Shown here: piece after piece, positions 4,575-45,080 of the stretch
Position numbering within the stretch: the first letter of the stretch is position 1
How the letters are laid out: each line of letters opens with the position of its first letter
The notes under the pieces: model-generated
The model's input: the letters and a program-made list of their open reading frames with translations, nothing else
What the model was told of the DNA's origin: nothing
Databases searched by the model: none
Assembly (NCBI GenBank): GCA_964639725.1
Contig: CAZXFB010000024.1
Location: forward strand, 1,638 to 65,637
Direction: 5' to 3'
Length of the DNA: 64,000 bases
Source of the DNA: an uncultured Rikenellaceae bacterium
GTDB lineage: Bacteria; Bacteroidota; Bacteroidia; Bacteroidales; VadinHA17
Translations under genes and position numbers: made by a program

Positions 4575-6581
4575 ATGAAAATGAAGCTAATATTTTCGTT
4601 ACTGTTCCTAATAAATACAGTTATTTATTTATCTGCACAGATTCAATATCCAGGCGAATATCCCGGAAAGGCAATGGCAAAAACATTGACTGGAAACAGG
4701 GTAATACTTGAAAATAATCTGATAAAAATGGAATTTGCAGGTGATAAAAACAGAGTTTCAATCATAAGCTTTGAAGATAAAATCACACATGAGGTGTTAA
4801 GCGAGATTAATGCTGCACTTTTTGAGCTGAAACTTACTGATAGCACTATTCTTACTTCAAATGATTTTACCCTTGGGCATTCTCCAGTTATCTCAGATTT
4901 ACCTGTTGATTCACATTCTGAAATCGTGGCGGAAAGAGTGAAGGGAAAAAGATATTCAGCAGATCTTGAAAACCAGAAACTGGGTTTGACCGTTCACTGG
5001 AAAGCAGAACTCAGGGATGGTTCAAATTATATCAGGCAGATATTTTCATTTACCACAAAATACCAGTCAGATATTTCCAGGATTACCCTTTTAAGGCTTC
5101 CTGCTAATTTGCCTGTGAAGAAGGAGGGAACTGTTGATGGTTCCCCAATTACTGTTGGTAAAATGTTCTTTGCTCTGGAATATCCATTGAGTAAAGTGGA
5201 ACTGAAAGATAATTATCTGGTATCGTATCTGCCACGTTTACTTCCTGTTATATCTACAGTATGGGGTACAACTCCGGTCAATCAGTTTCGTCGAGGATTC
5301 CTTTATTATATAGAACGGGAGCGGGCGCACCCCTACAACCAGGTATTACATTATAATTCATGGTATGATATCTCCTGGCATGACAGAAAATTAAATGAAG
5401 CGATATGTCTTGACAGGATCAGGATGTTTGGTGATAGCCTTATAAAAAAGAGAAATGTTCCTTTAAAGGCTTTTCTTTTTGACGATGGATGGGACGATAA
5501 CAAAACCCTCTGGGAGTTTAATTCAGGATTCCCTGATGGTTTTGAAAAATTGAAAACTGAAGCTGAATCATACAAGTCAACAGTAGGAGTCTGGCTGTCG
5601 CCTTTCGGAGGCTATGGGGAAACGAAAAAAGAGCGTCTGGAATATGGAAAGAAGCAGACTCCTCCGTTTGAAACAAATGATAATGGTTTTGCCCTTGACG
5701 GACCTGTATATTTTAAACGATTCAAAGATGTAACCAGCAGTTTCATAAATAAATACGACATCACTATGTTCAAATTTGATGGAGTTGGGGCTGGGAATGG
5801 TGCCGGAATTGCTTACCAGAAAGATATTGAGGCTTTCTTAAAACTTATTACTGAATTAAATGAATTAAAACCGGATCTTTATTTCAGTCTGACTACCGGA
5901 ACATGGGCTTCTCCCTACTGGCTCTTCTATGGTGATAACATATGGCGCGGAGGGGATGATACAAATATGATGGGTGAAGGTTCAAAAAGACAGCAGTGGA
6001 TAACTTATCGCGATGCAGATGTTTATAAAAATGTTGTGAAGGCAGGTCCGCTCTATCCGTTGAACGCCTTAATGACATGTGGAATTTGTATTGCAGATTA
6101 TGGATATCCTGCAGATTTTGATATGAATGACAAGGACATCTCAGATGAAATCTGGTCTTTCTTTGGAACAGGAACAAATCTTCAGGAACTTTATATAAAT
6201 CCGCATAAATTGAATACATCAAACTGGAATTGTCTGGCAGAGGCAAGTCACTGGGCAAAAGAGAATGAGGATATATTGGTCGATGTACACTGGACAGGCG
6301 GCAATCCGGCCAAAGGCGAAATATATGGTTATGCCGCATGGTCACCCCGTAAGGCTACACTGACACTGCGAAATCCATCGAAAGATGAAAAATCGTTTTT
6401 AGTGAATATTGCAGGAATATTCGAGCTCCCTGAATCAATGAAAAGTGAATATCAGTTTTACGATGCCAGGCAAGTGACGTTAAATGCTAAGAAGGAGATT
6501 ATTGCCCAGGGCAGGGTTTTTAACATCATTTTGAAACCATTCGAAGTTAAGGTAATGGATGCTTTCCCGGTCAGACAGTGA
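4575..6581 (+). CDS. Secreted putative glycoside hydrolase (melibiase/alpha-galactosidase-like TIM barrel); exact family uncertain
   Basis: 668 aa with signal peptide MKMKLIFSLLFLINTVIYLSAQ. Motifs LFDDGWDD and FKFDGVG resemble clan GH-D (GH27/36-type) catalytic cores. Confidence 0.45.
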   Translation: MKMKLIFSLLFLINTVIYLSAQIQYPGEYPGKAMAKTLTGNRVILENNLIKMEFAGDKNRVSIISFEDKITHEVLSEINAALFELKLTDSTILTSNDFTLGHSPVISDLPVDSHSEIVAERVKGKRYSADLENQKLGLTVHWKAELRDGSNYIRQIFSFTTKYQSDISRITLLRLPANLPVKKEGTVDGSPITVGKMFFALEYPLSKVELKDNYLVSYLPRLLPVISTVWGTTPVNQFRRGFLYYIERERAHPYNQVLHYNSWYDISWHDRKLNEAICLDRIRMFGDSLIKKRNVPLKAFLFDDGWDDNKTLWEFNSGFPDGFEKLKTEAESYKSTVGVWLSPFGGYGETKKERLEYGKKQTPPFETNDNGFALDGPVYFKRFKDVTSSFINKYDITMFKFDGVGAGNGAGIAYQKDIEAFLKLITELNELKPDLYFSLTTGTWASPYWLFYGDNIWRGGDDTNMMGEGSKRQQWITYRDADVYKNVVKAGPLYPLNALMTCGICIADYGYPADFDMNDKDISDEIWSFFGTGTNLQELYINPHKLNTSNWNCLAEASHWAKENEDILVDVHWTGGNPAKGEIYGYAAWSPRKATLTLRNPSKDEKSFLVNIAGIFELPESMKSEYQFYDARQVTLNAKKEIIAQGRVFNIILKPFEVKVMDAFPVRQ

Positions 6582-6661
6582 AATGGATTCTCTTTATTCA
6601 GGATAATATGACGATTTAAAGTCTTTATGGAGAACAAATTATAGCCTAGATCACATTAAAA

Positions 6662-6677
6662 AGGATAATGTTATCCT
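6662..6677. promoter_or_regulatory. 16-bp perfect inverted repeat (candidate operator) upstream of the hyf-like operon
   Basis: AGGATAAtgTTATCCT read directly from the sequence, about 220 nt upstream of the first gene of the operon. Confidence 0.3.
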
Positions 6678-6710
6678 GATCAATGCAGAATAACTTGCTA
6701 TATTCCGTTA

Positions 6711-6794
6711 CTTCAGAACCGGTATCAATTATAATTATGTAAGATCAGGTAATTCACCCGTTCTTAATTACTTATTCTTCAGAATCAGGTATCA
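6711..6794 (+). repeat. Imperfect direct repeats cttcagaaCCGgtatca / cttcagaaTCAGgtatca, with a third atcaggta core between them
   Basis: Copies lie at 6711-6727 and 6777-6794. A related gatcaggtaattca lies at about 6743-6756. All are in the 315-bp intergenic region before 6897. Confidence 0.35.
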
Positions 6795-6896
6795 CTTTAA
6801 TAACCCTCAAAAATTTAATTCCTGTTATCAAACTATCTTGTAAAGGTTTTTCTTTACTTTGCATCCTGTTTAATTATAGGATGAAATAATTAAAGA

Positions 6897-8921
6897 ATGA
6901 TGGTTTATGAGGGTAGTGAATTAATTGGTCTTATTTTTAAAACAATTGCAGTAATCTTTTTCTCTGGGATATCATCAATACCTTTTGTTCCCGTCAGAAT
7001 CAAACCTGTTATAAGTATTGTCACAGTTCTGCTTGTTGCCCTGATAACAAGTCTTTTAGCTGTTAAAGTCTTTTCCACAGGCGGAATTGATTTTACTCTC
7101 TACTGTGGATCATTCTTTGGCGAAATCCCAATGAGGATTGATGCATTATCAGCCTGGTTTATTCTGATTATTAATTTCACTGCTGCAACCGGTGTGTTAT
7201 ACGGTGCGGGTTACATGAGAGCATCAGATGTTCAGCCATCACTTATTACATTCCATTGGATAATTTATATAATATTTCATTTATCCATGCTATTTGTATG
7301 TATGGTTCAGCATAGTATAGCATTTATTGTAGTATGGGAAATCATGTCTTTGTCCTCGCTGCTCCTGGTATTATTTGATTATACTAATCCAAAAGTACTT
7401 AAAGCAGGTATTAACTATCTTGTACAAATGCATCTGAGTGTAGTTCTTCTCACTATAGCATTTATCTGGGTATATTTCAGAACAGGGACATTTGATTTTA
7501 AAGGTATAGGTGAGTTCTTTGATTCAAATGTCAATATCTGGGTATTTCTGATATTTTTTACCGGGTTTGGACTCAAGGCCGGATTTATCAGCCTGCATAC
7601 CTGGCTACCTCTTGCTCATCCGGCAGCTCCCTCTCATATTTCAGGAGTTATGTCAGGAGTTATTGTTAAGATGGGGATTTATGGCATTTTTCGTATAATC
7701 ACTTTTTTGAAAACAGATTTCCTGGTTTTGGGAGAGATTATTGTCACAATATCATTATTAACAGGCTTGTTTGGCATTATGAATGCTGCAGTACACAGAG
7801 ATTTCAAACGTATGCTTGCCTACTGTACAATAGAAAATATCGGGATCATTGGTATTGGCACAGGATTGGGACTTATTGGCATATCCACAGGACAAAACCT
7901 GCTTACTTTCTTTGGATTCGGAGGAGCACTGCTGCATGTACTTAACCATTCATTATTTAAGTCCTTGCTCTTCTTCTCTGCAGGTTCAGTTTATAAGCAG
8001 ACGCATACCCGCGATATGGACAAATTGGGAGGACTTATAAAAAACATGCCTAAGACTGCAATACTCTTTCTGACAGGTGCAATAGCTATCGGAGGGATTC
8101 CACCTCTGAACGGATTTATCTCAGAATTTTTAATTTATTGCGGAATATTAAAAGGAATAAACTCTGTTGGTATTGCTCTGGTCACATTAATGGTGCTTAC
8201 TTTTGCTGGGATGAGTCTGATTGGTGGGATTTCGATACTTACCTTTACAAAAACATTTGGAACAATATTTCTTGGGACTCCCCGGCAAAAATTGAAACAT
8301 GACCCTGTTGAAGTCCCTTTATTGATGCTAATACCTCAGTACATAATTATTGTTGTAATGTTATTGATTGCCTTTTTACCTGGCTATTTTGTAAACCTCA
8401 TCGGATCAATATTGAATTACAATATCTTTCCTAACATTGGTTATGTGTCTGTTGATCTGACAAGTTACCTGGAAATATTGAGAAGTATCAGTCTGGCTTC
8501 GGTCATATTCATATTTTTGCTAGGCCTTATGTTTACTGTCAGATGGATTCTGATGAAAGGAAAAGAAAATCAGCATGCTTCCACCTGGGGATGTGGATAT
8601 CTGGCACCAAATGAAAGAATGCAATATACTGGTAAATCGTTTTCTAAATCTTTTGGAAAACTTCTTAATTTTATGCTCATAGAGAAGAAAGGGTACGAGG
8701 AAATTAAAAAAAGTGAAACTTTTCCTGTTTCACGACAATACCGTTCCTTTTATCTCGATTTTTTTGAATTCAGGATTATTGATCCGGTTATACAATTGAT
8801 CAACCGGTTTATTAATCTGTTTCAGTTTATACAAAATGGCAAGATCCAGGCTTATGTCATTTATGGTATTGCTTTTATAATTACGATATTCATTGGAACA
8901 GTTTTAAATTTGTGGCATTGA
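6897..8921 (+). CDS. hyfB: HyfB/HycC/NuoL-like antiporter-type membrane subunit, copy 1
   Basis: 674 aa and polytopic. It carries the hallmark WLPLAHPAAPSHISGVMSGVIVKMGIYG, LAYCTIENIGII and the HyfB-type C-terminal extension with TWGCGY. Confidence 0.85.
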   Translation: MMVYEGSELIGLIFKTIAVIFFSGISSIPFVPVRIKPVISIVTVLLVALITSLLAVKVFSTGGIDFTLYCGSFFGEIPMRIDALSAWFILIINFTAATGVLYGAGYMRASDVQPSLITFHWIIYIIFHLSMLFVCMVQHSIAFIVVWEIMSLSSLLLVLFDYTNPKVLKAGINYLVQMHLSVVLLTIAFIWVYFRTGTFDFKGIGEFFDSNVNIWVFLIFFTGFGLKAGFISLHTWLPLAHPAAPSHISGVMSGVIVKMGIYGIFRIITFLKTDFLVLGEIIVTISLLTGLFGIMNAAVHRDFKRMLAYCTIENIGIIGIGTGLGLIGISTGQNLLTFFGFGGALLHVLNHSLFKSLLFFSAGSVYKQTHTRDMDKLGGLIKNMPKTAILFLTGAIAIGGIPPLNGFISEFLIYCGILKGINSVGIALVTLMVLTFAGMSLIGGISILTFTKTFGTIFLGTPRQKLKHDPVEVPLLMLIPQYIIIVVMLLIAFLPGYFVNLIGSILNYNIFPNIGYVSVDLTSYLEILRSISLASVIFIFLLGLMFTVRWILMKGKENQHASTWGCGYLAPNERMQYTGKSFSKSFGKLLNFMLIEKKGYEEIKKSETFPVSRQYRSFYLDFFEFRIIDPVIQLINRFINLFQFIQNGKIQAYVIYGIAFIITIFIGTVLNLWH

Positions 8922-10939
8922 TAAATATACTATTAGCCATATTAATAACAGCAGTAATTGGAATTTTGTCTCTAAAATCGAAAGGCAAAGGGATTATTAC
9001 TTTGATAACTGTTATAGTTACCGGACTGATTACAAGCTTTATAGCAGCAGGATCTCTATTCGGTGAAAGTTATGAAGTACTTCTTTCAGGAACAATTCTT
9101 TTTGGAAAAGTACTCATAAAAATAGATGCACTTTCTGCCTGGTTTATCCTGACTATCAATTTCACAATGATAACGGGAGTTATTTACGGGTTTAATTATA
9201 TGAAAAAATATATCAACAGGAAGAGTGACATCACTCTTCACTGTATAGCCTATTTACTTGTTCAGTTCTCTCTATTAGGTATATGTTCGGTTCAGAATGG
9301 ATTCGTTTTTCTGATATTATGGGAATTAATGGCCATTTCAAACTTTATTCTTGTGATTTTTGAGCACCATAAACCAGAAACAATAAAGGCAGGCCTGAAC
9401 TATATTGTCCAGTCGCATATAAGTATTGTTTTTATTATGATTGGTTTCATCTATGTTGCATATAAAACCGGCAATTACGGATTTGACGCAATTGTCCATT
9501 TCACTGGTAATCAGTCAACTCTTGCAGGAACTGCACTCTTTCTTTGTTTTTTTATTGGTTTTGCCATCAAATCAGGGTTTGTTCCTTTTCATACGTGGCT
9601 TCCATATGCCCATCCGGCAGCACCTTCACATGTTTCAGGAATTATGTCAGGTGTTGTGATAAAAATAGGTATTTATGGAATACTCAGAATGTTATTATTA
9701 ATTAAAACGGATTATACTACAATAGGTTATATTATTCTTTTTATATCTGTTTTTACAGGAATTTATGGTGTTATGCTTGCTACAATTCAGCACGATCTGA
9801 AAAAATTGCTTGCATATCACAGTATTGAAAATATCGGGATAATTGGAATCGGAATCGGAATTGGTTGCATCGGATTGGGTTCTGTAAATAAATGGATGGC
9901 AATACTGGGTTTCACAGGTGCTTTGCTTCATACACTTAATCACTCATTATTTAAATCATTGCTCTTTTATAGTGCAGGAAATGTTTTACAGAAGGCGCAT
10001 ACAGTAAATATTGAACGACTAGGTGGAATAATAAAGCGAATGCCGCAAACTGCTTTTTTGTTCCTGATCGCTGCCATTGCTATATGCGGTCTGCCTCCGT
10101 TAAACGGATTTATTTCAGAATTCATGATATTCGGCGGTTTGTATAACTGGCTTTACAGTGCCAGTCTGATTTCACTTATTGCAACTGTTTTTTCTCTGGC
10201 AGGTATGGTGTTGATTGGTGGTCTGGCATTATTATGCTTCACGAAAGCCTTCAGTATAGTATTTCTTGGAATACCGCGTTCTGATATTCATAATGAGATA
10301 TCTGAAACAGGTTTCTGGCAACTCCTGCCTATGTATATTACAGCCGCCCTGATGATAATCATTGGATTATTCCCATCATTTTTTATTGAGGCCTTACAGC
10401 GTCCTGTTAATCTTTTCACACATCATATCATCTTTAATCTTAATCTGATCAAAGTCGGGGCAATTGATTCACTTCAGGTGATTAGCTGGTTATTTACCGG
10501 ATTGATCGCAATAATTTTATCAGTTTTGGGATTAAGAAAGTATATCACAAGTAATAAGGTTGTTGAGACAGGTACTACCTGGAGCTGTGGTTATCCTGTC
10601 ACGGGTAGCAAACTGCAATATTCTGCCAGTTCTTTTGTCCGTAGTTATGCTAAACTTGCCAAACCACTTTTAGATATTGAAAAAAAAGAAGTAGAGATAA
10701 ATGAAGTTTTTCCATCGGAAAAAAAGTATGAAACAGATACCTATGACAAGATTGAAAGGATCTTCATTGATAAACCTATTAAACTTATAACCAGGATAGC
10801 TGATTTATTCCTTTTTCTCCAGAACGGGAAACTGCAGATTTATATTTTATACGGGATTATTTTTATCACGTCAGTAATTTGTCTGCCTCTAATAGCAGAA
10901 AAGGTCTTAACAATTCTTCATTTTTTAAATAACCTGTAA
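8912..10939 (+). CDS. hyfB: HyfB/HycC/NuoL-like antiporter-type membrane subunit, copy 2 (tandem paralog)
   Basis: 675 aa with WLPYAHPAAPSHVSGIMSGVVIKIGIYG, LAYHSIENIGII and C-terminal TWSCGY. A GTG start overlaps the upstream stop by 10 nt. Confidence 0.85.
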   Translation: MALINILLAILITAVIGILSLKSKGKGIITLITVIVTGLITSFIAAGSLFGESYEVLLSGTILFGKVLIKIDALSAWFILTINFTMITGVIYGFNYMKKYINRKSDITLHCIAYLLVQFSLLGICSVQNGFVFLILWELMAISNFILVIFEHHKPETIKAGLNYIVQSHISIVFIMIGFIYVAYKTGNYGFDAIVHFTGNQSTLAGTALFLCFFIGFAIKSGFVPFHTWLPYAHPAAPSHVSGIMSGVVIKIGIYGILRMLLLIKTDYTTIGYIILFISVFTGIYGVMLATIQHDLKKLLAYHSIENIGIIGIGIGIGCIGLGSVNKWMAILGFTGALLHTLNHSLFKSLLFYSAGNVLQKAHTVNIERLGGIIKRMPQTAFLFLIAAIAICGLPPLNGFISEFMIFGGLYNWLYSASLISLIATVFSLAGMVLIGGLALLCFTKAFSIVFLGIPRSDIHNEISETGFWQLLPMYITAALMIIIGLFPSFFIEALQRPVNLFTHHIIFNLNLIKVGAIDSLQVISWLFTGLIAIILSVLGLRKYITSNKVVETGTTWSCGYPVTGSKLQYSASSFVRSYAKLAKPLLDIEKKEVEINEVFPSEKKYETDTYDKIERIFIDKPIKLITRIADLFLFLQNGKLQIYILYGIIFITSVICLPLIAEKVLTILHFLNNL

Positions 10940-10940
10940 C

Positions 10941-11846
10941 ATGTTAAGTATAATATTAATACTGTTCACCAGCCTTCTTTTCACGGGAATTATTATACGC
11001 ACTAAAAGCGTAGCTTCAGGACGAAAAGGGCCAGGTCTGCTCCAGCCTGTCAAAGATGTGATCAGGTTATTTAGAAAAGGTGCTGTATATAGTGAAACAA
11101 CAAGTATTATTTTCAGGATTGCCTCTGTCATTTATTTTTCTTCAGTTCTTATGGCTTGCACAGTTATTCCTTTTGGCTCCTCAAGAGGTCTGGTAAGTTT
11201 TGACGGCGATTTTATTTTTTTCGCCTATATCCTTGCTTTAGGAAAATTCTTTAGCATAATTGGTGCAATGGATACGGGAAGCAGTTTTGAGGGAATGGGA
11301 GCAAGCCGTGAAGCATTATACTCGATGTTCGCTGAACCTGCTTTTTTTATTCTGATCGGTTCATTTGCATTAATGACAGGAAAGACATCATTTTATGATA
11401 TTTTTTCAACTTTACATCTTGGATCATCAATAACTTACACATTGGGAGGTCTGGCTGCATTCGTACTTATAATGATTACAATGATCGAAAACAGCAGGAT
11501 GCCGGTTGACGATCCTAAAACTCATCTCGAATTAACAATGATCCATGAAGTTATGATTCTCGATAACAGTGGATTCGATCTTGGATTAATACTATCGGCA
11601 GGTTACTTGAAGTTTGCAATGTATGGCGCTATCATTGCGGATTTTTTTATTGGTGGTCTGTCATTGGTTTTTGCTATACCTCTGTTCATTTTGATCCAGG
11701 TATTATTTGCAATAGTTATAGGATTGATAGAATCTTTTATGGCAAGGTTCAGGATGAATCATAATCCGCAATTTATTTTAGCATTGTCATCGGTAAGCTT
11801 CTTAATATTTCTTGGGGTACTGCTGGTTTTGGAAAAATTTGTTTAA
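10941..11846 (+). CDS. hyfC: HyfC/HycD/NuoH-like membrane subunit
   Basis: 301 aa. The N-terminus …RTKSVASGRKGPGLLQPVKDVIRLFRKG… matches the NuoH/HycD signature. It starts 1 nt after the upstream stop. Confidence 0.85.
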   Translation: MLSIILILFTSLLFTGIIIRTKSVASGRKGPGLLQPVKDVIRLFRKGAVYSETTSIIFRIASVIYFSSVLMACTVIPFGSSRGLVSFDGDFIFFAYILALGKFFSIIGAMDTGSSFEGMGASREALYSMFAEPAFFILIGSFALMTGKTSFYDIFSTLHLGSSITYTLGGLAAFVLIMITMIENSRMPVDDPKTHLELTMIHEVMILDNSGFDLGLILSAGYLKFAMYGAIIADFFIGGLSLVFAIPLFILIQVLFAIVIGLIESFMARFRMNHNPQFILALSSVSFLIFLGVLLVLEKFV

Positions 11847-11857
11847 ATATCTGAAAA

Positions 11858-12490
11858 ATGACAAACGTATTATTGATAATATTCATTATTAGTCTTTTAT
11901 ATGTATCAATTGCAAACAGAATTATTACTTATGTAAGAATTCTTGCCCTTCAGGGTTTTATCCTTTTTGGAGTAACATTTCTGCAGTTGCAGGATATTCA
12001 GACCTGGAACCTTGTTCTTATTCTGCTTGAAACTATTGTTTTCAAAGCTGTTGCTGTTCCTATGTTTCTGGGTTATCTGATCAAACGGAACAGAATAACT
12101 CGTGAAACGGAACCATATTTGCCTCACTTTATCTCTCTGATCATTATTACCATGATAGTCGTGATAACAGTATTACTGGCAAATTCAATTCAGGATACCC
12201 ACCTTGATAAAATATTTTTCATTGTGTCATTGTCAACTCTCTTTACCGGCCTCTATTTCATCTCATCAAGGAAAAAGATCATCACTCATGTTATGGGCTA
12301 TCTTATGATTGAAAATGGAGTGTTTATACTTTCCCTGGCTGTCGGAAACGAAATGCCAGGACTTGTGAACCTGGGTATCATGCTGGATGTTTTCGCGAGT
12401 GTATTGATATTGGGCATCTTCCTGAATAAGATAGGAGATGTTTTCAAAGATGTGGATGTTGACCAGCTGAGTAATTTAAAAGATTATTAA
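11858..12490 (+). CDS. hyfE: HyfE-like small membrane subunit (hydrogenase-4 component E family)
   Basis: 210 aa with about 6-7 TM helices. Size and operon position between the HyfC-like and HyfF-like genes match HyfE. Confidence 0.7.
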   Translation: MTNVLLIIFIISLLYVSIANRIITYVRILALQGFILFGVTFLQLQDIQTWNLVLILLETIVFKAVAVPMFLGYLIKRNRITRETEPYLPHFISLIIITMIVVITVLLANSIQDTHLDKIFFIVSLSTLFTGLYFISSRKKIITHVMGYLMIENGVFILSLAVGNEMPGLVNLGIMLDVFASVLILGIFLNKIGDVFKDVDVDQLSNLKDY

Positions 12491-12499
12491 ACACTTTAA

Positions 12500-13930
12500 A
12501 TGATGACTGGAATTTATCTAATAGGTGCTTTTCTGATTGCAGGATTACTTTTTCTTAACCGTAATAACATGGTTAATAATATTCTTGTGATCAGCTTTGG
12601 CATTCTTCAGACAGGTTTTACACTTTATGCCTGTAACAATTATAATAGTCGTGTACTTGAATATTTTACTTTCGATTCACTAGGATTACTACTTCTGATA
12701 ACGTTGAGCATTATTACCATTCCTGCTCTGCTCCACAGTTACCTCTACATTAAGCGTCATGATGAAACACCACAGTCGAGAGCTATTTATTTTTCGGCAA
12801 TGGTTATTCTTATTGCTTCAATTACAGCCGCTTACCTTGCTAATCATATTGCAGTCATCTGGATTTTTACAGAAATGACTACGTTATCTGCTTCGATGTT
12901 AATTTACCATCACCGTAATAAACTTGCCCTTGAGGGAACATGGAAGTATGTGTTTATTTGTGCCATAAGCATAACTTTTGTATTTATTGGAATCCTTTTC
13001 CTGAGTCTCTCACTTCAGCATGCCGGTTCAGATGATCTCTCATTCAGTAACCTTATGGCATACAAGGATAAGCTAAACCCATTCTGGCTCAGACTGGCAT
13101 TCCTCTTTATCTTCACCGGATTTACTGCAAAACTGGGATTAGTCCCTATGTATACTGCAGGGATTGATGCCAAGGATAAAGCACCTGCACCTGCAGGAGC
13201 TTTAATGGCCAGTGTCCTCATGAACCTTGGCTTTGTCGGGATATTCAGGTTTTATGCTGTTATTGCACATACCTCGCTATTTCACTGGGCTAACCTGATC
13301 ATCTTTATTGCCGCTTTCCTTTCAATATTTGTAGCAACTGTTTATATGACCAGGGTTACTAATATAAAAAGGATGTTTGCTTATTCGGGAATTGAACATA
13401 TGGGAATTGTAATGCTTGGAATCGCAGCGGGAGGAGTGGGTTATTATGCTGCAGTTCTACATATAGTGTTGCATGCCTTCATAAAGTCAAGTCTGTTTTT
13501 TCAGTTCAACCAGTTATACAGAACTTTCCAAAGTAAGAGTATTCATCATGTTGGTAATTATTTCAAATATAATCCTGCAGGTGCGATTGTATTATTATTA
13601 GGATTTGTAAGCGCAACTGCAATGCCTCCTTCCGGATTATTTGTAAGTGAGTTCCTTATATTCAGATCACTCTTTGAAGGAAACTATATAATCCTCCTGT
13701 TGGTCGTTCTGTTATTATTGACAATTGTTATCTGGGCTTTTGGAAAGAATATACTCAAGATACTGTTTCTTCCTGTTTCCGGTCTGGACGAAACAAAAAT
13801 TCCAAAAATAAGTCCATGGGAATCACTGACTCAATATCTATTGTTGTTCACAGCTATCTGGTTGGGACTTAATCCTCCTCCTGTTTTTGTCCGGTTAATC
13901 CAGGATGCAGTAAGAATTTTACCAAATTAA
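12500..13930 (+). CDS. hyfF: HyfF/HyfD/NuoN-like antiporter-type membrane subunit
   Basis: 476 aa and polytopic, with MFAYSGIEHMGIVMLGIAAGG and the LHAFIKSSLFF motifs of Mrp/Nuo antiporter-like subunits. Confidence 0.8.
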   Translation: MMTGIYLIGAFLIAGLLFLNRNNMVNNILVISFGILQTGFTLYACNNYNSRVLEYFTFDSLGLLLLITLSIITIPALLHSYLYIKRHDETPQSRAIYFSAMVILIASITAAYLANHIAVIWIFTEMTTLSASMLIYHHRNKLALEGTWKYVFICAISITFVFIGILFLSLSLQHAGSDDLSFSNLMAYKDKLNPFWLRLAFLFIFTGFTAKLGLVPMYTAGIDAKDKAPAPAGALMASVLMNLGFVGIFRFYAVIAHTSLFHWANLIIFIAAFLSIFVATVYMTRVTNIKRMFAYSGIEHMGIVMLGIAAGGVGYYAAVLHIVLHAFIKSSLFFQFNQLYRTFQSKSIHHVGNYFKYNPAGAIVLLLGFVSATAMPPSGLFVSEFLIFRSLFEGNYIILLLVVLLLLTIVIWAFGKNILKILFLPVSGLDETKIPKISPWESLTQYLLLFTAIWLGLNPPPVFVRLIQDAVRILPN

Positions 13931-13931
13931 T

Positions 13932-15431
13932 ATGAGCTATATTAAAATATTTAATCAACAATCCATTCGGCTAAATAAAATTCCGGAGATGGATTATGAT
14001 GTATTTTTTGAAACCAATACATCCTTAATACAGGATCATCCGGAAAGGCATTGTATCATGTATTTTGGTTACAGTGATAAAGAAATGATACATCTTATTT
14101 GTTGTATTGCAGATGATACAGAGCATAATATTCTGGTTTCTTCATCAGTTGTCAAAAGAGATTCCATGCTTAATGCTTTCTCTGCAATAAATCTTTCATT
14201 TGAGAAGTTTGAAAGGGAGATACACGAAAACTTTGGTATATCATATAATGATCATCCATGGCTGAAACCTGTTCGTTACAGTGAAAACAGGACAGAAAAA
14301 TCAGATTTAATCTCTGATTATCCATTTTTCAGTATTGCCAGTGAAGAACTGCATGAAGTGGGAGTAGGGCCGGTTCATGCCGGTATAATTGAACCAGGAC
14401 ATTTCAGGTTTGTTTGTAACGGAGAGCAGATTCTTCATCTTGAAATTCAGTTAGGTTATCAGCATAGAGGAATTGAACAATTATTTCTTGAAAAGAAAAA
14501 ACTAATCCAGCGTGTAGTTTTGGCTGAATCAATCGCCGGAGATAGCGTGATCGGGCATGCATCTGCATTTGCCTATCTGTGGGAGGCTCTTTCCGGTACT
14601 ATTCCCGGACAAGAAATTCTTTATTCAAGAACACTTGCCCAGGAGATTGAAAGAATTGCTATACACACAGGTGATTTGAGTGCAATATGTACCGATGTTG
14701 CTTACCAGCTTGGAAGTTCAGTGTTCGGAAGACTAAGGACACCTGTCATTAATTTCTTTCAGGAATGGTGTGGTAACCGTTTATCCAAGGGATTAATCCG
14801 TGCCGGTTACAATCCATATCCATTTAACAAAATACTTGCTGAAAGACTTAATGAAGTACTTAATGCCTTTGAACCTGATTTTGTTGAAATGAATAGTGAA
14901 CTTTCAAGATTGCCAAGTTCATTATCAAGGTTTGAGAGGACAGGAACTCTCACCTATGATCAGTTATTATCTGTTGGGACTGTTGGAATGTCAGCAAGAA
15001 TGAATTCTCTAAACAGGGATATCAGAATATCTCACCCGTATGGCATATATCAGGAGTTTGGTCACAATCCTGTAATTAAGCACCATGGTGATGTTTATTC
15101 CCGTGTGCAGATAAGAAAAGAGGAAGTAATTCAGTCTATAGGTTATATCAGGCAGATGCTTAATCATATTCCTGATAAAGAAAATACTAATGATCACTCA
15201 CTTAGGCTTGTGCCTGATTCTTTTGCTATCTCCCTCACTGAAGGATGGAGAGGCGAGATATGCCATGCAGCAATAACTGACAGCAATGGTGAACTGCTTA
15301 TATATAAGATTAAGGATCCTTCCTTCCATAACTGGCTTGCTTTGGCATTATCAGTGAGGAATAATGAAATCTCTGATTTTCCAGTTATTAATAAAAGTTT
15401 TGATTTGTCATATTGCGGACACGATCTGTAA
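13932..15431 (+). CDS. hyfG: HycE/HyfG-like NuoC-NuoD fusion (large-subunit homolog) lacking the [NiFe] cysteine ligands
   Basis: 499 aa with a NuoC-like FEKFEREIHENFGISYNDHP and a NuoD/large-subunit-like VGVGPVHAGIIEPGHFRF. The L1 position reads LAESIAGDSVIGHASAFAY, where hydrogenases have …R.CG.C…H. The C-terminus reads SFDLSYCGHDL-stop, where hydrogenases have …DPC..C..R/H. Confidence 0.8.
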   Translation: MSYIKIFNQQSIRLNKIPEMDYDVFFETNTSLIQDHPERHCIMYFGYSDKEMIHLICCIADDTEHNILVSSSVVKRDSMLNAFSAINLSFEKFEREIHENFGISYNDHPWLKPVRYSENRTEKSDLISDYPFFSIASEELHEVGVGPVHAGIIEPGHFRFVCNGEQILHLEIQLGYQHRGIEQLFLEKKKLIQRVVLAESIAGDSVIGHASAFAYLWEALSGTIPGQEILYSRTLAQEIERIAIHTGDLSAICTDVAYQLGSSVFGRLRTPVINFFQEWCGNRLSKGLIRAGYNPYPFNKILAERLNEVLNAFEPDFVEMNSELSRLPSSLSRFERTGTLTYDQLLSVGTVGMSARMNSLNRDIRISHPYGIYQEFGHNPVIKHHGDVYSRVQIRKEEVIQSIGYIRQMLNHIPDKENTNDHSLRLVPDSFAISLTEGWRGEICHAAITDSNGELLIYKIKDPSFHNWLALALSVRNNEISDFPVINKSFDLSYCGHDL

Positions 15432-15448
15432 AACAAAAATTGTCAACA

Positions 15449-16198
15449 ATGTTAAGAACCCTTCAAATAATGTATCATCAGGGAAAACAATATATTCCTG
15501 ACCTGACAAATGCCAAAGTTCCTGGCATTTTCAGGGGACGACCTGAGATAAGTTCCGGAAAAATTGATGAAAAGTTACTGGTTGATATTTGTCCGAATGA
15601 TGCAATTGCTTCTGATCCGGTAAGGATTGATCTGGGCAGATGTGCCTTCTGTGGTGAATGTTCAAGGTGCTTTCCGGAAAAGATACATTTTACTACGGAT
15701 TACAGATTATCTTCAAACGAGAGGGAAAGGTTGATTATTACTGAAGGTATCTTTATGCCTGTAAGTTTAAACCCCGATCTTATCAGAAAAGAGATCCGCA
15801 AGCTTTTCAGTGGTTCACTCAAACTAAGACAGGTTTCTGCAGGAGGAGATAACAGTTGCGAACTTGAACTAAATGCCTGTGGAAATGTCAATTTTGATAT
15901 GGGACGCTATGGTATTGAATTTGTGGCATCACCGCGGCATGCTGACGGAATTGTTATAACAGGACCAATCTCAAAAAACATGGCAGAGCCTTTGCAGATG
16001 ACTTATGATGCCACACCTTCACCCAAAATAATTATACTCGCAGGAACCGATGCAATTAGCGGAGGTATATTTGACGGAACTCCTGCAATAAACAGAAAGT
16101 TCATCAATCTAAATAAAATAGATCTTTATATACCCGGAAATCCTGTGCACCCGCTGACTTTCATCAACGGAGTCATGGATTTGCTGGGGATCAAGTAG
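15449..16198 (+). CDS. hyfI: HycG/HyfI/NuoB-like small-subunit homolog fused to a degenerate ferredoxin-like (HycF/HyfH/NuoI-like) N-terminal domain
   Basis: The likely ATG at 15449 is 17 nt after the upstream stop; the track TTG at 15413 overlaps the previous gene. The NuoB core is FVASPRHADGIVITGP. The cluster positions read VSAGGDNSCELE, AGTDAISGGIF and IPGNPVHP. The N-terminal part carries ICPNDAI … CAFCGECSRCFP. Confidence 0.75.
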   Translation: MLRTLQIMYHQGKQYIPDLTNAKVPGIFRGRPEISSGKIDEKLLVDICPNDAIASDPVRIDLGRCAFCGECSRCFPEKIHFTTDYRLSSNERERLIITEGIFMPVSLNPDLIRKEIRKLFSGSLKLRQVSAGGDNSCELELNACGNVNFDMGRYGIEFVASPRHADGIVITGPISKNMAEPLQMTYDATPSPKIIILAGTDAISGGIFDGTPAINRKFINLNKIDLYIPGNPVHPLTFINGVMDLLGIK

Positions 16199-41151: not shown

Positions 41152-44100
41152 TTATTGTCTTATTTTTATAACTGGAATACTCTTTCTTATCCAGCGGGAA
41201 CTGATATTTAAATAGTAAAGTGCAGGAGATAATCCGACAACATCATTATTTATAATAATTGTATTGGTTCCTTTAGATATTTTCTGTTCAATATGGTAAA
41301 GCTTCATTCCTGAAAGATTGACCAGAGTAATCTGAGCTGTATCAGCAACAAGTGAATTAATAACAATTTTGAGCTGATCGGTGAATGGATTTGGAAATAC
41401 CAGAAGTGGTTCATCAGTTGCGGAGTATTCAATCCTGGAATAGAGAGTGTCGTTTTTGGGATAATCATCATTATTCTCTATGCTAAAAATCATAAGATTA
41501 TAGATCCCGTATTTTGAAAGATCAGCTTTCATGATGAAAGTTACAGAAACCGAATCGCTGTAGGGGTACAATTTTTTATCGAAAAATTGCATAACAGGTG
41601 TCCCATTATTTAATGTGTAAGCAAGATTGAATCCTTTTATTGTATCCTGTCCAAAATTCAATACTTTAAGGGCAACCTCCTTTTTTCCTGTTTTCCCATT
41701 TAATGAAGGGGATACTATTCTTGCCAGTTCAAGGTCCCTCTGTACGAACTTAACAGATCCTTTAACCGAAAAATCAATCATATCGATCCATGCAGCATCA
41801 GCACCACCGGGTTTGCTTTCATCTTTATAATATACCCATTCCAGTTTATTGACTCCTGCAGGTACTCCTATTACTTTTTTCTCCCAGCCAGATTCTCCAG
41901 ATTTCTTAAAGATTTCAGTTCCATTCAGACGGAATGAGAGGTAATCATAGTTAGCTTCGGATGAAACTTTGTAATAAAACCTAATTGAATCAGGGGCTGA
42001 ATAGATAGTTCTGATTATTAGACTGGTAGTGCCATCATCAGAGATGGCACCTGATCTGGCACTTATATTCCCATCGTATGGATTTGTACTGCTTATAATC
42101 CATGGTGCAGAACTCAGATTTATCCACGGGAAGATTTTAAATGATAATGATTCAAAACTCTCCCTTACTCTGCCTACCCGAAATGTGAAGTCTTTGTTCA
42201 GAATATAGGGTTTGCAATCGAGCGAAGTGAATAATGATATTATATCCCCGATATCTGTATTATCTGAAACTCTGGCAGGTACAACTATTTCGGTTGTCTC
42301 GCCAAACTGGAGATTTCCTGATTTAACAGGCGACTGAAGAATATTTATCCTGTTATCAGGACTTGAAATATTTAATTCACCGGATATGTTGCTGCTTCCT
42401 TCATTGATTATCTGAAAAACAAAATTAACGGTCTCTCCAGGGTCAGCCACTAAATTTTTGTTTCCAGTTCCAGAATCATCAATTCTGCAACTGATAATTG
42501 AAAGAACAGGAGCATGGGCTGTAATATCTATTTTATATAGTTTTTCAGAGACCTGATCTTTTAAAGTCATCTCAAAAGGAATAATTCCCATGTCAGGTAC
42601 TGTTTCTGCAATTGTGAGATTAAATCCGTCAGAAACAAGGATCTCTGTTCCCGGATTTATATTTCCTATAAAAACCGAATCCACATTAATTTTTACCCAT
42701 TCAGATAATGATTCTAATTTTGCATAAGCCCCCGTGGCTACTGATGATCCAAGATTGCTGATGGTCGTTGCAAGAGAAAATGTCTCTCCAAAATCAGCCT
42801 GCCCGTTATTGTTAGATGAATTATCGTTTATATCTGAAGATGTAAGGTTGAGAAACTGTTGGTTTATTTTTGAGAAATAGACCTTTTTGATAAGAGGAAT
42901 TTTATTTTGACCTGTAATAACAAAGAGGCATGAATCATTACTTAAACCAGGCATTTCCATTACAACTGACCCTGATGGGCTTGCATAGGAGGCGTCCCAC
43001 AATGTATCAAAGTGTGATACAGCTACATAGGAAAATGGATCAATACTTAAGGAAAGTGATTTTATTCCATTAGGAAGGGTATCCGGAATGGATATTTTAA
43101 AAGTATCAGGTTGTCCGATAACAGGTATCATACTTGGATCCCCAACCAGGTTATAGGTTTCCCAGTAATATTTTTTCCAGCTGGAAGTACTTGCACTTAC
43201 AGCCATATTTCCTGAGTAATTTACCTGCCCCATTGTAATATACCAGTCTGATGGTGATTCATCATGTGTATGGAAGAGCCTGTCTAGGGCACCAAGCCCG
43301 GTTTGTTCATATTTTGGATTCACCGCCCTGGGATCACCGACACCTACTGCCCAGTAGTAGTCTTCATCCCAGAATGAGTCATTGGAGCATCCAATGAAAC
43401 CTATTGCTCCTTTATCTTTCGATAATACCATTCTGTTGCCAAATGAGGTAACATTGTATCGGGATGTCTGACAGGCATTACTTATAATAAAAGGATACAT
43501 GTTTTTATTAGATAAAGATGCTGTATCCCTGACCTTAATATCAATGTGCTGCCAGCCTGCTGCTTCCCCATGCCCTGTATAATTTATAAATGAAGTTCCA
43601 TTATTAATATATCTGATCAGTGAATCCTTCCTGGCACTCAATGCACCTGTGACACTTAACTTTGAAAAATAGTAAAAGTGTTGTTCTTTGATTTTATTTG
43701 CCTCATTAAGGTAATTATCAAGAGCATATTTTATCTGTCCGTTCATGATACTGGCATAACTGGCATCATAACCTGCACTTATAATTGCGTTTGAATAGAA
43801 TTTATTAGTATCTGCGAATTCAAATTTTTCATATTGAATGATTTTTTTGACAACAGTTTTTAATTCATTTGTATCGGCTACAGGTAGTCTGCCGATAAAC
43901 ATATCAGGTATATAATCTCCGTTGCCGTCAAATTCACCATAATACATATCTGTAATATTAGAATATCCACCATAATTCGGGACTTTGTTTACATCACCTA
44001 CAATTAACAGATATTCTGGAGGTGGGTCACTTTCTGATGAGGCAAGCCATAGCTTTGACAATGATGCTTTGAGCTCAGTATATGTAGTTCCGGCATATCT

Positions 44101-44952
44101 GGCTCCTCTGGTTAGGATTTTGAGTTTAAATCCTTTTTGTCTCTTCCACTCAAGAAGAGGTTGAAGATGTTTTAAGAAAGTAGTATCAGTGAGGATAACC
44201 ATTGTTACCGGTTTGTCGGAATAACCGGTAATTAAATCCTCCGGAATGTAATTAAGAACACCTTTGCTCAGCGATTCTGCAAAAACAGCAGATTCTGGGT
44301 ATGAAGATTTTATTGAAGGGATATCTGACTGAGTGAATATAACCTCTATTTTCATCGAAGTTATTACCTCAAGATAGTTTGATTTAGGATTATATCGTAC
44401 CGGTGATATAAAAAGGTTTGCCAGGCGTCTGCTTCTTACTATTCCCAATGGTAAAATATTCACCGTGTCTGAGTTTATCAATCCCCTTGTGGCATAAGTA
44501 GCTTTATTTATAATAAAAGCAGGTTTCTCTTGCTTAAACTCTTTAGTTTCTCTTTCCTGTGAGGGGAAAAGCACTCCTTCCAGTTTAGCACTTGATGGTT
44601 TAATTTTAGTTGATTCTATATCTGAAATCTTAATATTATAAGAACAATCTTCAGGTATTGTTATCAACCGGCTCAAAACCGGCAGTTCAGGGTTTCCTAT
44701 TGTTGTAGTTGGTGCATGTCCCGGTATACTTATGCGGAAGAAGGGTCCGTTTTCATTTACAAAGCTCTCAACATCAAGTTCGGATATCGAATAGTCGATT
44801 ACAATAGATCTCTTATTAATTATAGCATTGTGCTTTTGCAAATCACCATTAAAATGGTACTTGTATGTTCTTTCTGCCTGTCCGCCTGCTGATGCTGATA
44901 AAAGCAGAAAAACTGCTAATAATTTAGCTTGTTTATTATCCCCTAAACGCAT
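41152..44952 (-). CDS. Gingipain-family (C25) cysteine peptidase with a T9SS C-terminal sorting domain
   Basis: About 1266 aa from the ATG at 44952, with a signal peptide. It has a C25 propeptide-like N-terminus (…GNPELPVLSRL…). The catalytic His context is NYTGHGEAAGW and the catalytic Cys context is ISNACQTSRY. The C-terminal LLVFPNPFTDQLKIVI…LYYLNI… matches a type A T9SS CTD. Confidence 0.8.
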   Translation of the reverse strand: MRLGDNKQAKLLAVFLLLSASAGGQAERTYKYHFNGDLQKHNAIINKRSIVIDYSISELDVESFVNENGPFFRISIPGHAPTTTIGNPELPVLSRLITIPEDCSYNIKISDIESTKIKPSSAKLEGVLFPSQERETKEFKQEKPAFIINKATYATRGLINSDTVNILPLGIVRSRRLANLFISPVRYNPKSNYLEVITSMKIEVIFTQSDIPSIKSSYPESAVFAESLSKGVLNYIPEDLITGYSDKPVTMVILTDTTFLKHLQPLLEWKRQKGFKLKILTRGARYAGTTYTELKASLSKLWLASSESDPPPEYLLIVGDVNKVPNYGGYSNITDMYYGEFDGNGDYIPDMFIGRLPVADTNELKTVVKKIIQYEKFEFADTNKFYSNAIISAGYDASYASIMNGQIKYALDNYLNEANKIKEQHFYYFSKLSVTGALSARKDSLIRYINNGTSFINYTGHGEAAGWQHIDIKVRDTASLSNKNMYPFIISNACQTSRYNVTSFGNRMVLSKDKGAIGFIGCSNDSFWDEDYYWAVGVGDPRAVNPKYEQTGLGALDRLFHTHDESPSDWYITMGQVNYSGNMAVSASTSSWKKYYWETYNLVGDPSMIPVIGQPDTFKISIPDTLPNGIKSLSLSIDPFSYVAVSHFDTLWDASYASPSGSVVMEMPGLSNDSCLFVITGQNKIPLIKKVYFSKINQQFLNLTSSDINDNSSNNNGQADFGETFSLATTISNLGSSVATGAYAKLESLSEWVKINVDSVFIGNINPGTEILVSDGFNLTIAETVPDMGIIPFEMTLKDQVSEKLYKIDITAHAPVLSIISCRIDDSGTGNKNLVADPGETVNFVFQIINEGSSNISGELNISSPDNRINILQSPVKSGNLQFGETTEIVVPARVSDNTDIGDIISLFTSLDCKPYILNKDFTFRVGRVRESFESLSFKIFPWINLSSAPWIISSTNPYDGNISARSGAISDDGTTSLIIRTIYSAPDSIRFYYKVSSEANYDYLSFRLNGTEIFKKSGESGWEKKVIGVPAGVNKLEWVYYKDESKPGGADAAWIDMIDFSVKGSVKFVQRDLELARIVSPSLNGKTGKKEVALKVLNFGQDTIKGFNLAYTLNNGTPVMQFFDKKLYPYSDSVSVTFIMKADLSKYGIYNLMIFSIENNDDYPKNDTLYSRIEYSATDEPLLVFPNPFTDQLKIVINSLVADTAQITLVNLSGMKLYHIEQKISKGTNTIIINNDVVGLSPALYYLNISSRWIRKSIPVIKIRQ

Positions 44953-45080
44953 CAATGTTAATTAATTAACACAACCCTAAATTCTGATTGCAAGTTATGA
45001 AAAAAACAATATATTCTGAAAGCAGGCTTATTATATTTGATTAAAATAATAAGATTTGTATTTTTATAGTAGATTTAGGA

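Follow-up and report, generated by a model that had tools for sequence, protein, structure and literature searches.

An Ehr-type complex of Bacteroidota with ligands for one of three ancestral [4Fe-4S] clusters

Complexes termed energy-converting hydrogenase-related (Ehr) reportedly go back to Coppi in 2005, and the class is said to have been surveyed by Marreiros et al. in 2013. The subject of this study is a complex, apparently of this class, encoded by seven genes (operon at 6897-16198, + strand) on a contig of an uncultured Rikenellaceae bacterium (CAZXFB010000024.1), of which a stretch of 64,000 nucleotides, hereafter the window, was analyzed. Coordinates refer to the window unless another contig is named. 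The analysis centers on the small subunit, the gene of which (15449-16198, + strand) is the seventh and last of the tightly packed, hydrogenase-4-like operon.

Ehr complexes form an established class of unknown function that is defined by the loss of the NiFe ligands (PMC6349859, PMC10284858, PMC7894505, PMC10432482), and NuoI-NuoB and NuoC-NuoD fusions have been reported for some of them (PMC6349859, Supplementary Note 4). The operon combines antiporter-like, NuoH-like, and HyfE-like membrane subunits in a Hyf-like arrangement with a NuoC-NuoD large subunit that lacks the two NiFe CxxC motifs and with a NuoI-NuoB small subunit. By these sequence features the seven-subunit complex is classified as an Ehr complex, a relative of hydrogenase-4 (Hyf) that is common in Bacteroidota. 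The literature consulted discusses Ehr as an electron-transfer module, whereas the small subunit encoded here is also devoid of two of the three iron-sulfur (Fe-S) sites, and its NuoB site holds an invariant set of Asp, Asp, and Asn. A full ligand set is present for one of the three ancestral [4Fe-4S] sites (Cys48 with Cys65, Cys68, and Cys71). The favored reading, to which we assign a probability of roughly 55%, is that no electron wire leads to the pocket of the large subunit, that the complex is probably not redox-driven, and that its peripheral arm has been repurposed, with the remaining cluster in a structural or regulatory role. The NuoI-NuoB fusion is not new, but the two-site loss with invariant Asp/Asp/Asn appears undescribed: in the literature searched, neither an Ehr or NuoB-like subunit depleted of Fe-S sites nor the Bacteroidota operon was found described, and nothing was found on how this site loss is distributed in the phylum or on its recurrence. 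What Marreiros et al. surveyed in 2013 lay outside that search and may bear on it.

For most subunits the best sequence matches are found in formate hydrogenlyase (FHL) and hydrogenase-4 of Escherichia coli (HycC-G and HyfB-I; 7Z0S), with E-values of 2e-29 for HycE, 2e-19 for HycG, 1e-24 for HycD, and 3e-14 for HycF, and the subunit set corresponds to that of Hyf (HyfB-type, C, E, F, G, H, and I). In contrast to FHL and Hyf, there is no NiFe site, the counterparts of HycF and HycG form one fused protein that lacks the last ~75 residues of HycF, and one Fe-S site is found where theirs number three. Nor does any gene for a HycB/HyfA ferredoxin or a formate dehydrogenase lie nearby. MBS/MBX (6U8Y; PMC7684303) and MBH (6CFW) of Pyrococcus furiosus are also complex-I-like respiratory modules. 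MBS likewise has no NiFe site, and the NuoB-like domain finds its best match, in structure as well as in sequence, in MbhJ of MBH. However, MBS and MBH contain three [4Fe-4S] clusters and are driven by ferredoxin, whereas ligands for only one cluster are present here.

The folds and families of the small subunit are also those of NuoB (cluster N2) and NuoI (clusters N6a and N6b) of complex I, and the surviving site has the N6b ligand pattern. Yet the N2 and N6a ligands are absent, as are the quinone-binding Tyr and His, and no NuoA, NuoJ, NuoE, NuoF, or NuoG gene was found in or beside the operon. Mrp antiporters (6Z16, 7QRU), which work without redox chemistry, resemble the complex in their antiporter-like subunits with a conserved Lys/Glu chain. 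They have no NuoD/NuoB/NuoI-like peripheral arm, however, whereas here the arm is the most conserved part, and instead of MrpB, C, E, F, and G the operon encodes NuoH-, HyfE-, NuoCD-, and NuoIB-like proteins. The CO2-hydrating modules (CupA of the cyanobacterial NDH-1MS, and DabAB) offer a precedent for a non-redox reaction on complex-I-type membrane subunits, a functional analogy only; no CupA or DabA homologue is encoded here.

The small subunit and its remaining cluster site

Residues of the small subunit are numbered for the 249-residue form that starts at ATG 15449. Its NuoB/HycG-like domain comprises residues 126-249 (15824-16198, + strand), as supported by Pfam PF01058 and by alignments with MbhJ, HycG, and Nqo6. 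The PF01058 match covers residues 148-256 of the 261-residue open reading frame (ORF) and scores 70 bits against a cut-off of 27. An AlphaFold2 model of the subunit reached a predicted local distance difference test score (pLDDT) of 92.6, with 93-96 for residues 31-100, and a predicted TM-score (pTM) of 0.89. In a Foldseek comparison the C-terminal domain of the model superimposed on MbhJ with a TM-score of 0.84 and a root mean square deviation of 1.7 Å over 130 columns. By curated threshold and by fold, the domain belongs to the PF01058 small-subunit family.

The ligand positions of the proximal [4Fe-4S] cluster (N2) were mapped by HMMER alignment to chains of solved structures, namely MbhJ (6cfw_J; ligand motifs VNSGSCNGCDIEI, GACPTGGSVF, and PGCPPRP), HycG (7z0s_G; VDCGGCNGCEIE, GACGNSGGIF, and IPGCPP), and Nqo6. 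The first cysteine is replaced by Asp134 (codon 15848-50, + strand as for all codons below), the second is kept as Cys137 (15857-59), the third is replaced by Asp201 (16049-51), and the fourth by Asn231 (16139-41); the four cysteine ligands are therefore not present as a set. This is exactly the assignment that an initial annotation of the window had made from the letters and their translated ORFs, and from which it had concluded that the NuoB cluster is gone. Conservation was assessed in 81 small-subunit sequences from different Bacteroidota species and, separately, in 121 close homologues, and gene neighborhoods in the loci of the best 80 matches. The fusion occurs in every relative, and Asp134, Ser136, Glu138, Asp201, Ser204, Asn231, and His234 are invariant in 81 of 81 sequences. 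Because it is invariant in so many different species, the pattern of ligand loss is not a matter of chance, and the conclusion that the cluster has been lost is borne out. Position 137 behaves differently: it is Cys in 69 of the 81 sequences, Thr in ten, Ser in one, and Asn in one, and it is Thr or Ser in 36 of the 121 close homologues. Since 12 of the 81 relatives do without it, Cys137 is not a conserved ligand. The earlier description of one proximal cysteine out of four being retained thus stands for the residue, which is present, but not for a ligand function, as the residue is replaceable.

The invariance of the replacement residues could also mean that Asp134, Asp201, Asn231, and Cys137 hold a non-canonical Fe-S cluster and that the electron chain is modified rather than broken, and Asp does substitute for one Cys ligand in some [4Fe-4S] proteins. 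The initial annotation had entered a caveat to this effect. It loses most of its force, however, because the site offers a single thiolate at most, which 12 of 81 species replace by Thr, Ser, or Asn and a second lineage, described below, by Ile or Val. We know of no [4Fe-4S] site made of two carboxylates, an amide, and no or one Cys, and regard such a cluster as very improbable.

The N-terminal domain (residues 1-99, 15449-15745, + strand) resembles HycF, HyfH, and NuoI. As a single sequence it gave weak NuoI/HycF matches under the NCBIfam cut-offs and no Pfam Fer4 match. A profile of residues 1-115 built from 11 relatives matched residues 1-106 of HycF (7z0s_F) with an E-value of 2.9e-14 and also matched NdhI, MbhN, and NuoI, which establishes homology to the ferredoxin core of these subunits. 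A linker of residues 100-125 (15746-15823, + strand) follows and is homologous to the N-terminal extension of HycG. The fusion accordingly joins HycF (1-~106) to HycG (~12-end), as query residues 100-247 align with HycG 12-161 in HMMER.

In ferredoxins with two [4Fe-4S] clusters, each cluster is bound by three cysteines of one motif and by the Cys-Pro cysteine of the other. The two complete CxxCxxCxxxCP motifs of NuoI, HycF, and HyfH are not found in the small subunit, in which motif 1 is reduced to Cys48-Pro49 and motif 2 keeps Cys65, Cys68, and Cys71. A single [4Fe-4S] site is predicted from Cys48 (15590-92), Cys65 (15641-43), Cys68 (15650-52), and Cys71 (15659-61). Cys48, Pro49, Cys65, Cys68, Cys71, and Pro76 are invariant in all 81 Bacteroidota sequences, and the four cysteines also in 121 of 121 close homologues. 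The proposals of the initial annotation that the domain is HycF/HyfH/NuoI-like with only the Cys-Pro of motif 1 left, and that exactly one cluster site survives, agree with the profile and with this conservation. Its remark that the last cysteine of motif 2 comes one residue early applies to Cys74 (15668-70), which is present but is Ala or Leu in 64 of the 81 sequences and Cys in no relative, and is therefore a chance feature of this genome. In 73 of the 81 sequences Phe or Tyr occupies position 75, and motif 2 has no conserved fourth cysteine. By the textbook wiring and the ligand table of Thermus Nqo9, the surviving site would be the middle cluster of the chain, equivalent to N6b.

If so, the middle cluster would be isolated at both ends, as the entry cluster and N2 are gone, and electrons could not reach the pocket that lies between the large, the small, and the NuoH-like subunit. 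With the cluster isolated in this way, the complex is unlikely to be a redox-driven pump, and the surviving cluster would rather be a structural or regulatory (redox- or oxygen-sensing) cofactor. The earlier suggestion that no electron path leads to the large-subunit pocket gains support, all the more as the large subunit has no NiFe ligands either.

A competing explanation is that the complex is still a redox enzyme, in which the lone cluster takes electrons from a separately encoded partner and ion translocation is redox-driven; in variants of it, a substrate would be reduced at or near the cluster, or electrons would pass to a metal at Asp134, Asp201, and Asn231. All lineages have the four cysteines without exception, including those with a highly degenerate NuoB-like domain, relatives with a complete chain have identical large-subunit residues, and for MBS of Pyrococcus the Fe-S cluster itself has been proposed to be catalytic (PMC7684303). 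Against this, none of the 80 loci has a conserved donor or partner gene next to the operon, and the motif 1 cysteines are absent that would bind the outer cluster, which faces the surface and is where electrons enter in solved relatives. Judged by homology, two tunnelling steps would separate the surviving cluster from the coupling pocket, and the former cluster site holds hard oxygen donors, which are atypical ligands of a redox metal. A complex that is still driven by redox chemistry in any of these ways is considered unlikely.

Large subunit and membrane arm

The large subunit 'EhrL' (499 residues, 13932-15431, + strand) is a NuoC-NuoD/HycE-like fusion that matches PF00346 with 111 bits and PF00329 weakly, and aligns with HycE (7z0s_E), MbhL, and Nqo4. 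The HycE segment RVCGICGFAH reads SIAGDSVIGH here, and DPCYSC reads DLSYCG. At the positions of the NiFe cysteines are Ala202, Ser205 (Ser or Thr across relatives), Ser493, and Gly496, a pattern that is kept in 69 relatives, and neither the L1 nor the L2 cysteine motif of group 4 [NiFe]-hydrogenases is found. In the Nqo4 alignment Ile153 and Gly203 occupy the positions of His38 and Tyr87 (Thermus Nqo4 numbering), the quinone-site residues of complex I. Judged by its NiFe and quinone ligands, the large subunit is predicted to be neither a hydrogenase nor a quinone reductase.

Glu154, His157, Arg159, Asp204, His209, Glu442, and Asp498 are invariant in the 69 large-subunit relatives, Arg440 is found in 68, and Cys495 and His497 in 67 each. 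The former NiFe site (residues 154-209 and 493-498; 14391-14558 and 15408-15425) holds a near-invariant polar set in the motifs IAGD..GH and SYCGHDL, and both motifs are common to relatives that have all three small-subunit Fe-S sites. The set Glu154/His157/Arg159/Asp204/His209/Cys495/His497/Asp498 is a possible metal or substrate site.

By analogy with CO2 hydration by CupA on cyanobacterial NDH-1, or by DabA on the antiporter-like subunit DabB, Asp204, His209, Cys495, His497, and Asp498 might bind a metal such as zinc, and the complex would then couple a non-redox reaction in the large-subunit pocket to the ion gradient. These Asp, His, Cys, His, and Asp residues are located exactly at the former NiFe ligands, the pumping residues are intact, and aerobic Bacteroidota of freshwater and soil, Niastella among them, carry the complex widely. 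On the other hand, the pocket residues also occur in the three-cluster relatives, which fits a redox site better than a hydratase, the Pfam and Protein Data Bank matches point to no such enzyme, and the 80 loci reveal no genomic link to carbon fixation or to a substrate pathway. An enzyme of this kind is viewed as improbable.

The membrane arm begins with two HyfB-like antiporter-type subunits of 674 residues (6897-8921, + strand; PF00361, 175 bits) and 675 residues (8912-10939, + strand; PF00361, 188 bits), the first of which scores 480 bits with the NCBIfam model 'hydrogenase 4 subunit B' and does not reach its cut-off of 667. In subunit 1, Glu148 in transmembrane helix 5 (TM5), Lys227 in TM7, Lys258 in TM8, and His351/Lys355 are invariant in 38 relatives, and Glu410 is found in 37 of them. 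Subunit 2 aligns with MbhH (6cfw_H) with an E-value of 2.3e-63; the Glu, Lys, Lys, His-Lys, and Glu positions correspond, and all of these residues are invariant in 53 relatives. In the HyfF-like antiporter-type subunit (476 residues, 12500-13930, + strand; PF00361, 147 bits), comparison with NuoM and MbhH shows that the TM5 Glu, the TM7 Lys, and the TM12 Glu are kept. Asn242 (13223-13225), invariant in 65 relatives, replaces the TM8 Lys of NuoM and MbhH, unlike both HyfB-like subunits, in which the TM8 Lys is retained. The antiporter-like subunits also match the MrpA and MrpD chains and have the Glu/Lys chain of these proteins.

The HyfC/HycD/NuoH-like subunit (301 residues, 10941-11846, + strand; PF00146, 120 bits) matches HycD (7z0s_D, E=1e-24), and its loop ENSRMPVDDPKTHLEL aligns with the E..R.P.D....EL pattern of HycD and Nad1; Glu183, Arg186, Asp190, and Glu197 are invariant in 60 relatives. 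The HyfE-like subunit (210 residues, 11858-12490, + strand) matches the NCBIfam model 'hydrogenase 4 membrane subunit' under its cut-off (E=5.8e-21) and PF00420 (NuoK) weakly, with an identity of 61-96% across loci. Thus, the charged residues that can be mapped on MbhH, NuoM, HycD, and Nad1 are kept except at TM8 of the HyfF-like subunit, and nearly all are invariant in 38-65 relatives.

Since the antiporter-like and NuoH-like subunits have conserved charges and the large subunit has conserved loops, ion movement by the complex most likely persists. The role for which the peripheral arm is retained is probably not electron transfer and might, for example, be charge or cation binding, or conformational gating, at the former cluster site and the pocket. 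On this reading nature has carried out an experiment on the complex I superfamily: strict selection maintains the pumping apparatus together with the coupling loops, and the electron wire is cut on both sides of one cluster. The case bears on the idea that charge changes at the N2/quinone site trigger pumping.

Distribution, selection, and stepwise loss of cluster sites

A scan of one genome per species yielded at least 582 genomes with a small subunit of this type. Of the best 80 matches, all but three records are labelled Bacteroidota; the exceptions are an unlabelled metagenome chromosome, a metagenome-assembled genome (MAG) of an unclassified 'bacterium', and a MAG labelled Chloroflexota. 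On the Chloroflexota-labelled contig (JBLNAO010000017.1, locus L023) the operon is 69-91% identical to the Bacteroidales-type subunits of the window, and this contig is probably mis-binned. Carriers include Bacteroidales, Chitinophagaceae with the cultured Niastella vici, Saprospiraceae, Sphingobacteriales, and a Flavobacterium MAG; cultured carriers such as N. vici make the question of function testable. Every locus with enough flanking sequence has the identical seven genes in identical order. When the non-operon ORFs of the 80 loci were clustered, no consistently linked gene was found. Candidate accessory genes, encoding a gamma-glutamyltranspeptidase, an M49 peptidase, and a DNA-alkylation-repair-like protein, were rejected, as they reflect only local synteny among close relatives.

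Mean identity across the phylum is 82% for the NuoB-like domain and 63% for the ferredoxin domain, and the ratio of nonsynonymous to synonymous substitution rates (dN/dS) is ~0.05 and ~0.13, respectively, both values being approximate, as dS is saturated. All parts are under strong purifying selection. Lake metatranscriptomes contain contigs that match parts of the large- and small-subunit genes with an identity of at least 99%, thin evidence that both are expressed. The loss of catalytic and cluster ligands from both peripheral subunits might be taken to indicate a decaying hydrogenase relic with neutrally drifting substitutions. Such decay is at odds with a seven-gene synteny held across Bacteroidota orders, a small subunit that is 70-82% identical across orders with a dN/dS of 0.05-0.13, invariant replacement residues, nearly all membrane-arm charges invariant, and transcripts in lakes, and its probability is negligible.

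More distant relatives were collected from 1.84 billion representative proteins, of which 128 matched at E<=1e-30, many of them fragments. Among the full-length ones, three forms were distinguished by their Fe-S sites. Thirteen representatives have two complete ferredoxin motifs and the four NuoB cysteines (three sites), and 18 have lost motif 1 but keep the Cys-Pro, the CxxCxxC, and the four NuoB cysteines (two sites). In about ten, which resemble the protein of the window, the NuoB cysteines are also lost and ligand positions 1 and 3 are Asp or Glu (one site). No form that keeps the outer ferredoxin cluster and lacks the middle one was seen among full-length relatives. The contigs of seven relatives covering all three types show, where long enough, the Hyf-like gene set with one or two HyfB-like genes. 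Wherever the regions are covered, they also show an Ehr-type large subunit with AGD..GH and SYCGHDL, the exception being one partial type-b large subunit that reads SH and SYCGADL.

In a rough neighbor-joining tree the clade of the window adjoins two-cluster forms, and a second group without NuoB cysteines lies inside a different two-cluster set. The four ligand positions of this group read DIDD, DVDS, ECED, or TDES, Ile or Val can take the position of Cys137 in this lineage, and the middle site of the ferredoxin domain is kept. The group also differs in its fourth-ligand signature, its gene order, and its Ehr large subunit. The NuoB cluster thus seems to have been lost at least twice, with the middle ferredoxin cluster kept and carboxylates installed each time. 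The series of three, two, and one sites alongside one type of large subunit, with an apparently recurrent change from Cys to carboxylate, shows how Fe-S sites may get lost.

The recurrent change from Cys to Asp or Glu suggests, as a speculation, that a negative charge or a bound cation matters at the old N2 position. Taken further, the complex would be an electron-free machine of the complex I type in which the N2-type cluster was replaced in two lineages, apparently independently, by a carboxylate pair (Asp/Asp or Glu/Glu) that binds a cation or protons as a substitute for the redox-switched charge. This proposal is tentative and, to our minds, somewhat doubtful. If it were true, a new ion-driven or ion-gated transporter, or a gradient-coupled non-redox enzyme, would have arisen on the complex I scaffold, and an electron-free complex would be present in hundreds of Bacteroidota species.

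Several points weigh against a complex that has ceased to be redox-driven. The four cysteines remain invariant in relatives that have diverged widely, which could reflect redox work with a separate partner. Relatives with a full chain share the pocket residues, and the chemistry of the pocket may be redox-dependent there; how electrons would be dispensable in the Bacteroidota form is not obvious. The N6b assignment comes from textbook wiring and the Nqo9 ligand table rather than from coordinates, the dN/dS values are approximate owing to saturation, and the tree is distance-based and includes many fragmentary representatives.

Relatives carry the database names 'Ni,Fe-hydrogenase III small subunit' or 'NADH:ubiquinone oxidoreductase'. 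Names denoting a hydrogenase or NADH dehydrogenase subunit are wrong for this protein, and they risk false inferences of hydrogen metabolism or of extra respiratory capacity in metagenomes of lakes, soil, and wastewater.

Some operons of non-Bacteroidota relatives have same-strand neighbors that overlap or abut them, each seen once. Upstream lies a gene for an HTH_17 and PTS EIIA-2 protein (locus L084, 2721-3461), and downstream lie two half genes of the chromate transporter family (L086, 10762-11837), a universal stress protein gene (L089, 8705-9172), and an Rrf2 regulator gene (L083, 10976-11410). They give hints of ion or stress physiology.

Gene model and other features of the window

Translation of the small-subunit ORF could start at TTG 15413, in overlap with the large-subunit gene's end, at ATG 15449, or at ATG 15470. 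These three candidates correspond to the mechanical ORF of 261 residues, to a protein of 249 residues, and to the public gene call for the contig (P0001, 242 residues), respectively. The start at ATG 15449 is favored because the lengths of close homologues are 248-250 residues and the N-terminus MLxTLKI is common to 120 of them. All sequence strings quoted by the initial annotation were found in the translation. It had allowed for a different gene model, with a separate upstream hyfH-like ORF that has complete motifs. A hidden gene of this kind was rejected, as a six-frame motif scan found no further CxxCxxC ORF within the operon, and the fusion is present in every relative.

A Rfam search of the whole window gave no match at the gathering score, and only chance-level matches in the operon leader (6450-7000). 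A promoter and terminator scan, which does not model Bacteroidota promoters, returned 50 promoter-like sites against 40.4 +/- 6.5 in shuffled sequence. In one metagenome run (X1) a single DNA contig joins 10110 to 14436, with only 26 letters on the shorter side of the join. The 4325 bases that it skips extend from the end of the second HyfB-like gene into the gene of the large subunit. Either misassembly or a deletion carried by part of the population could account for the join.

The operon neighbors in the window are unrelated genes for glycosidases, a gamma-glutamyltranspeptidase, and peptidases. The only other pair of 2x[4Fe-4S] motifs in the window belongs to an aldo/keto reductase (PF00248; 48535-49728, + strand) with two C-terminal CxxCxxCxxxC motifs, which is unrelated to the operon. 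On the opposite strand, 41152-44955 encodes a 1267-residue C25 (gingipain-family) peptidase with a propeptide and a C-terminal sorting domain for type IX secretion, which fits the origin of the window from Bacteroidota.

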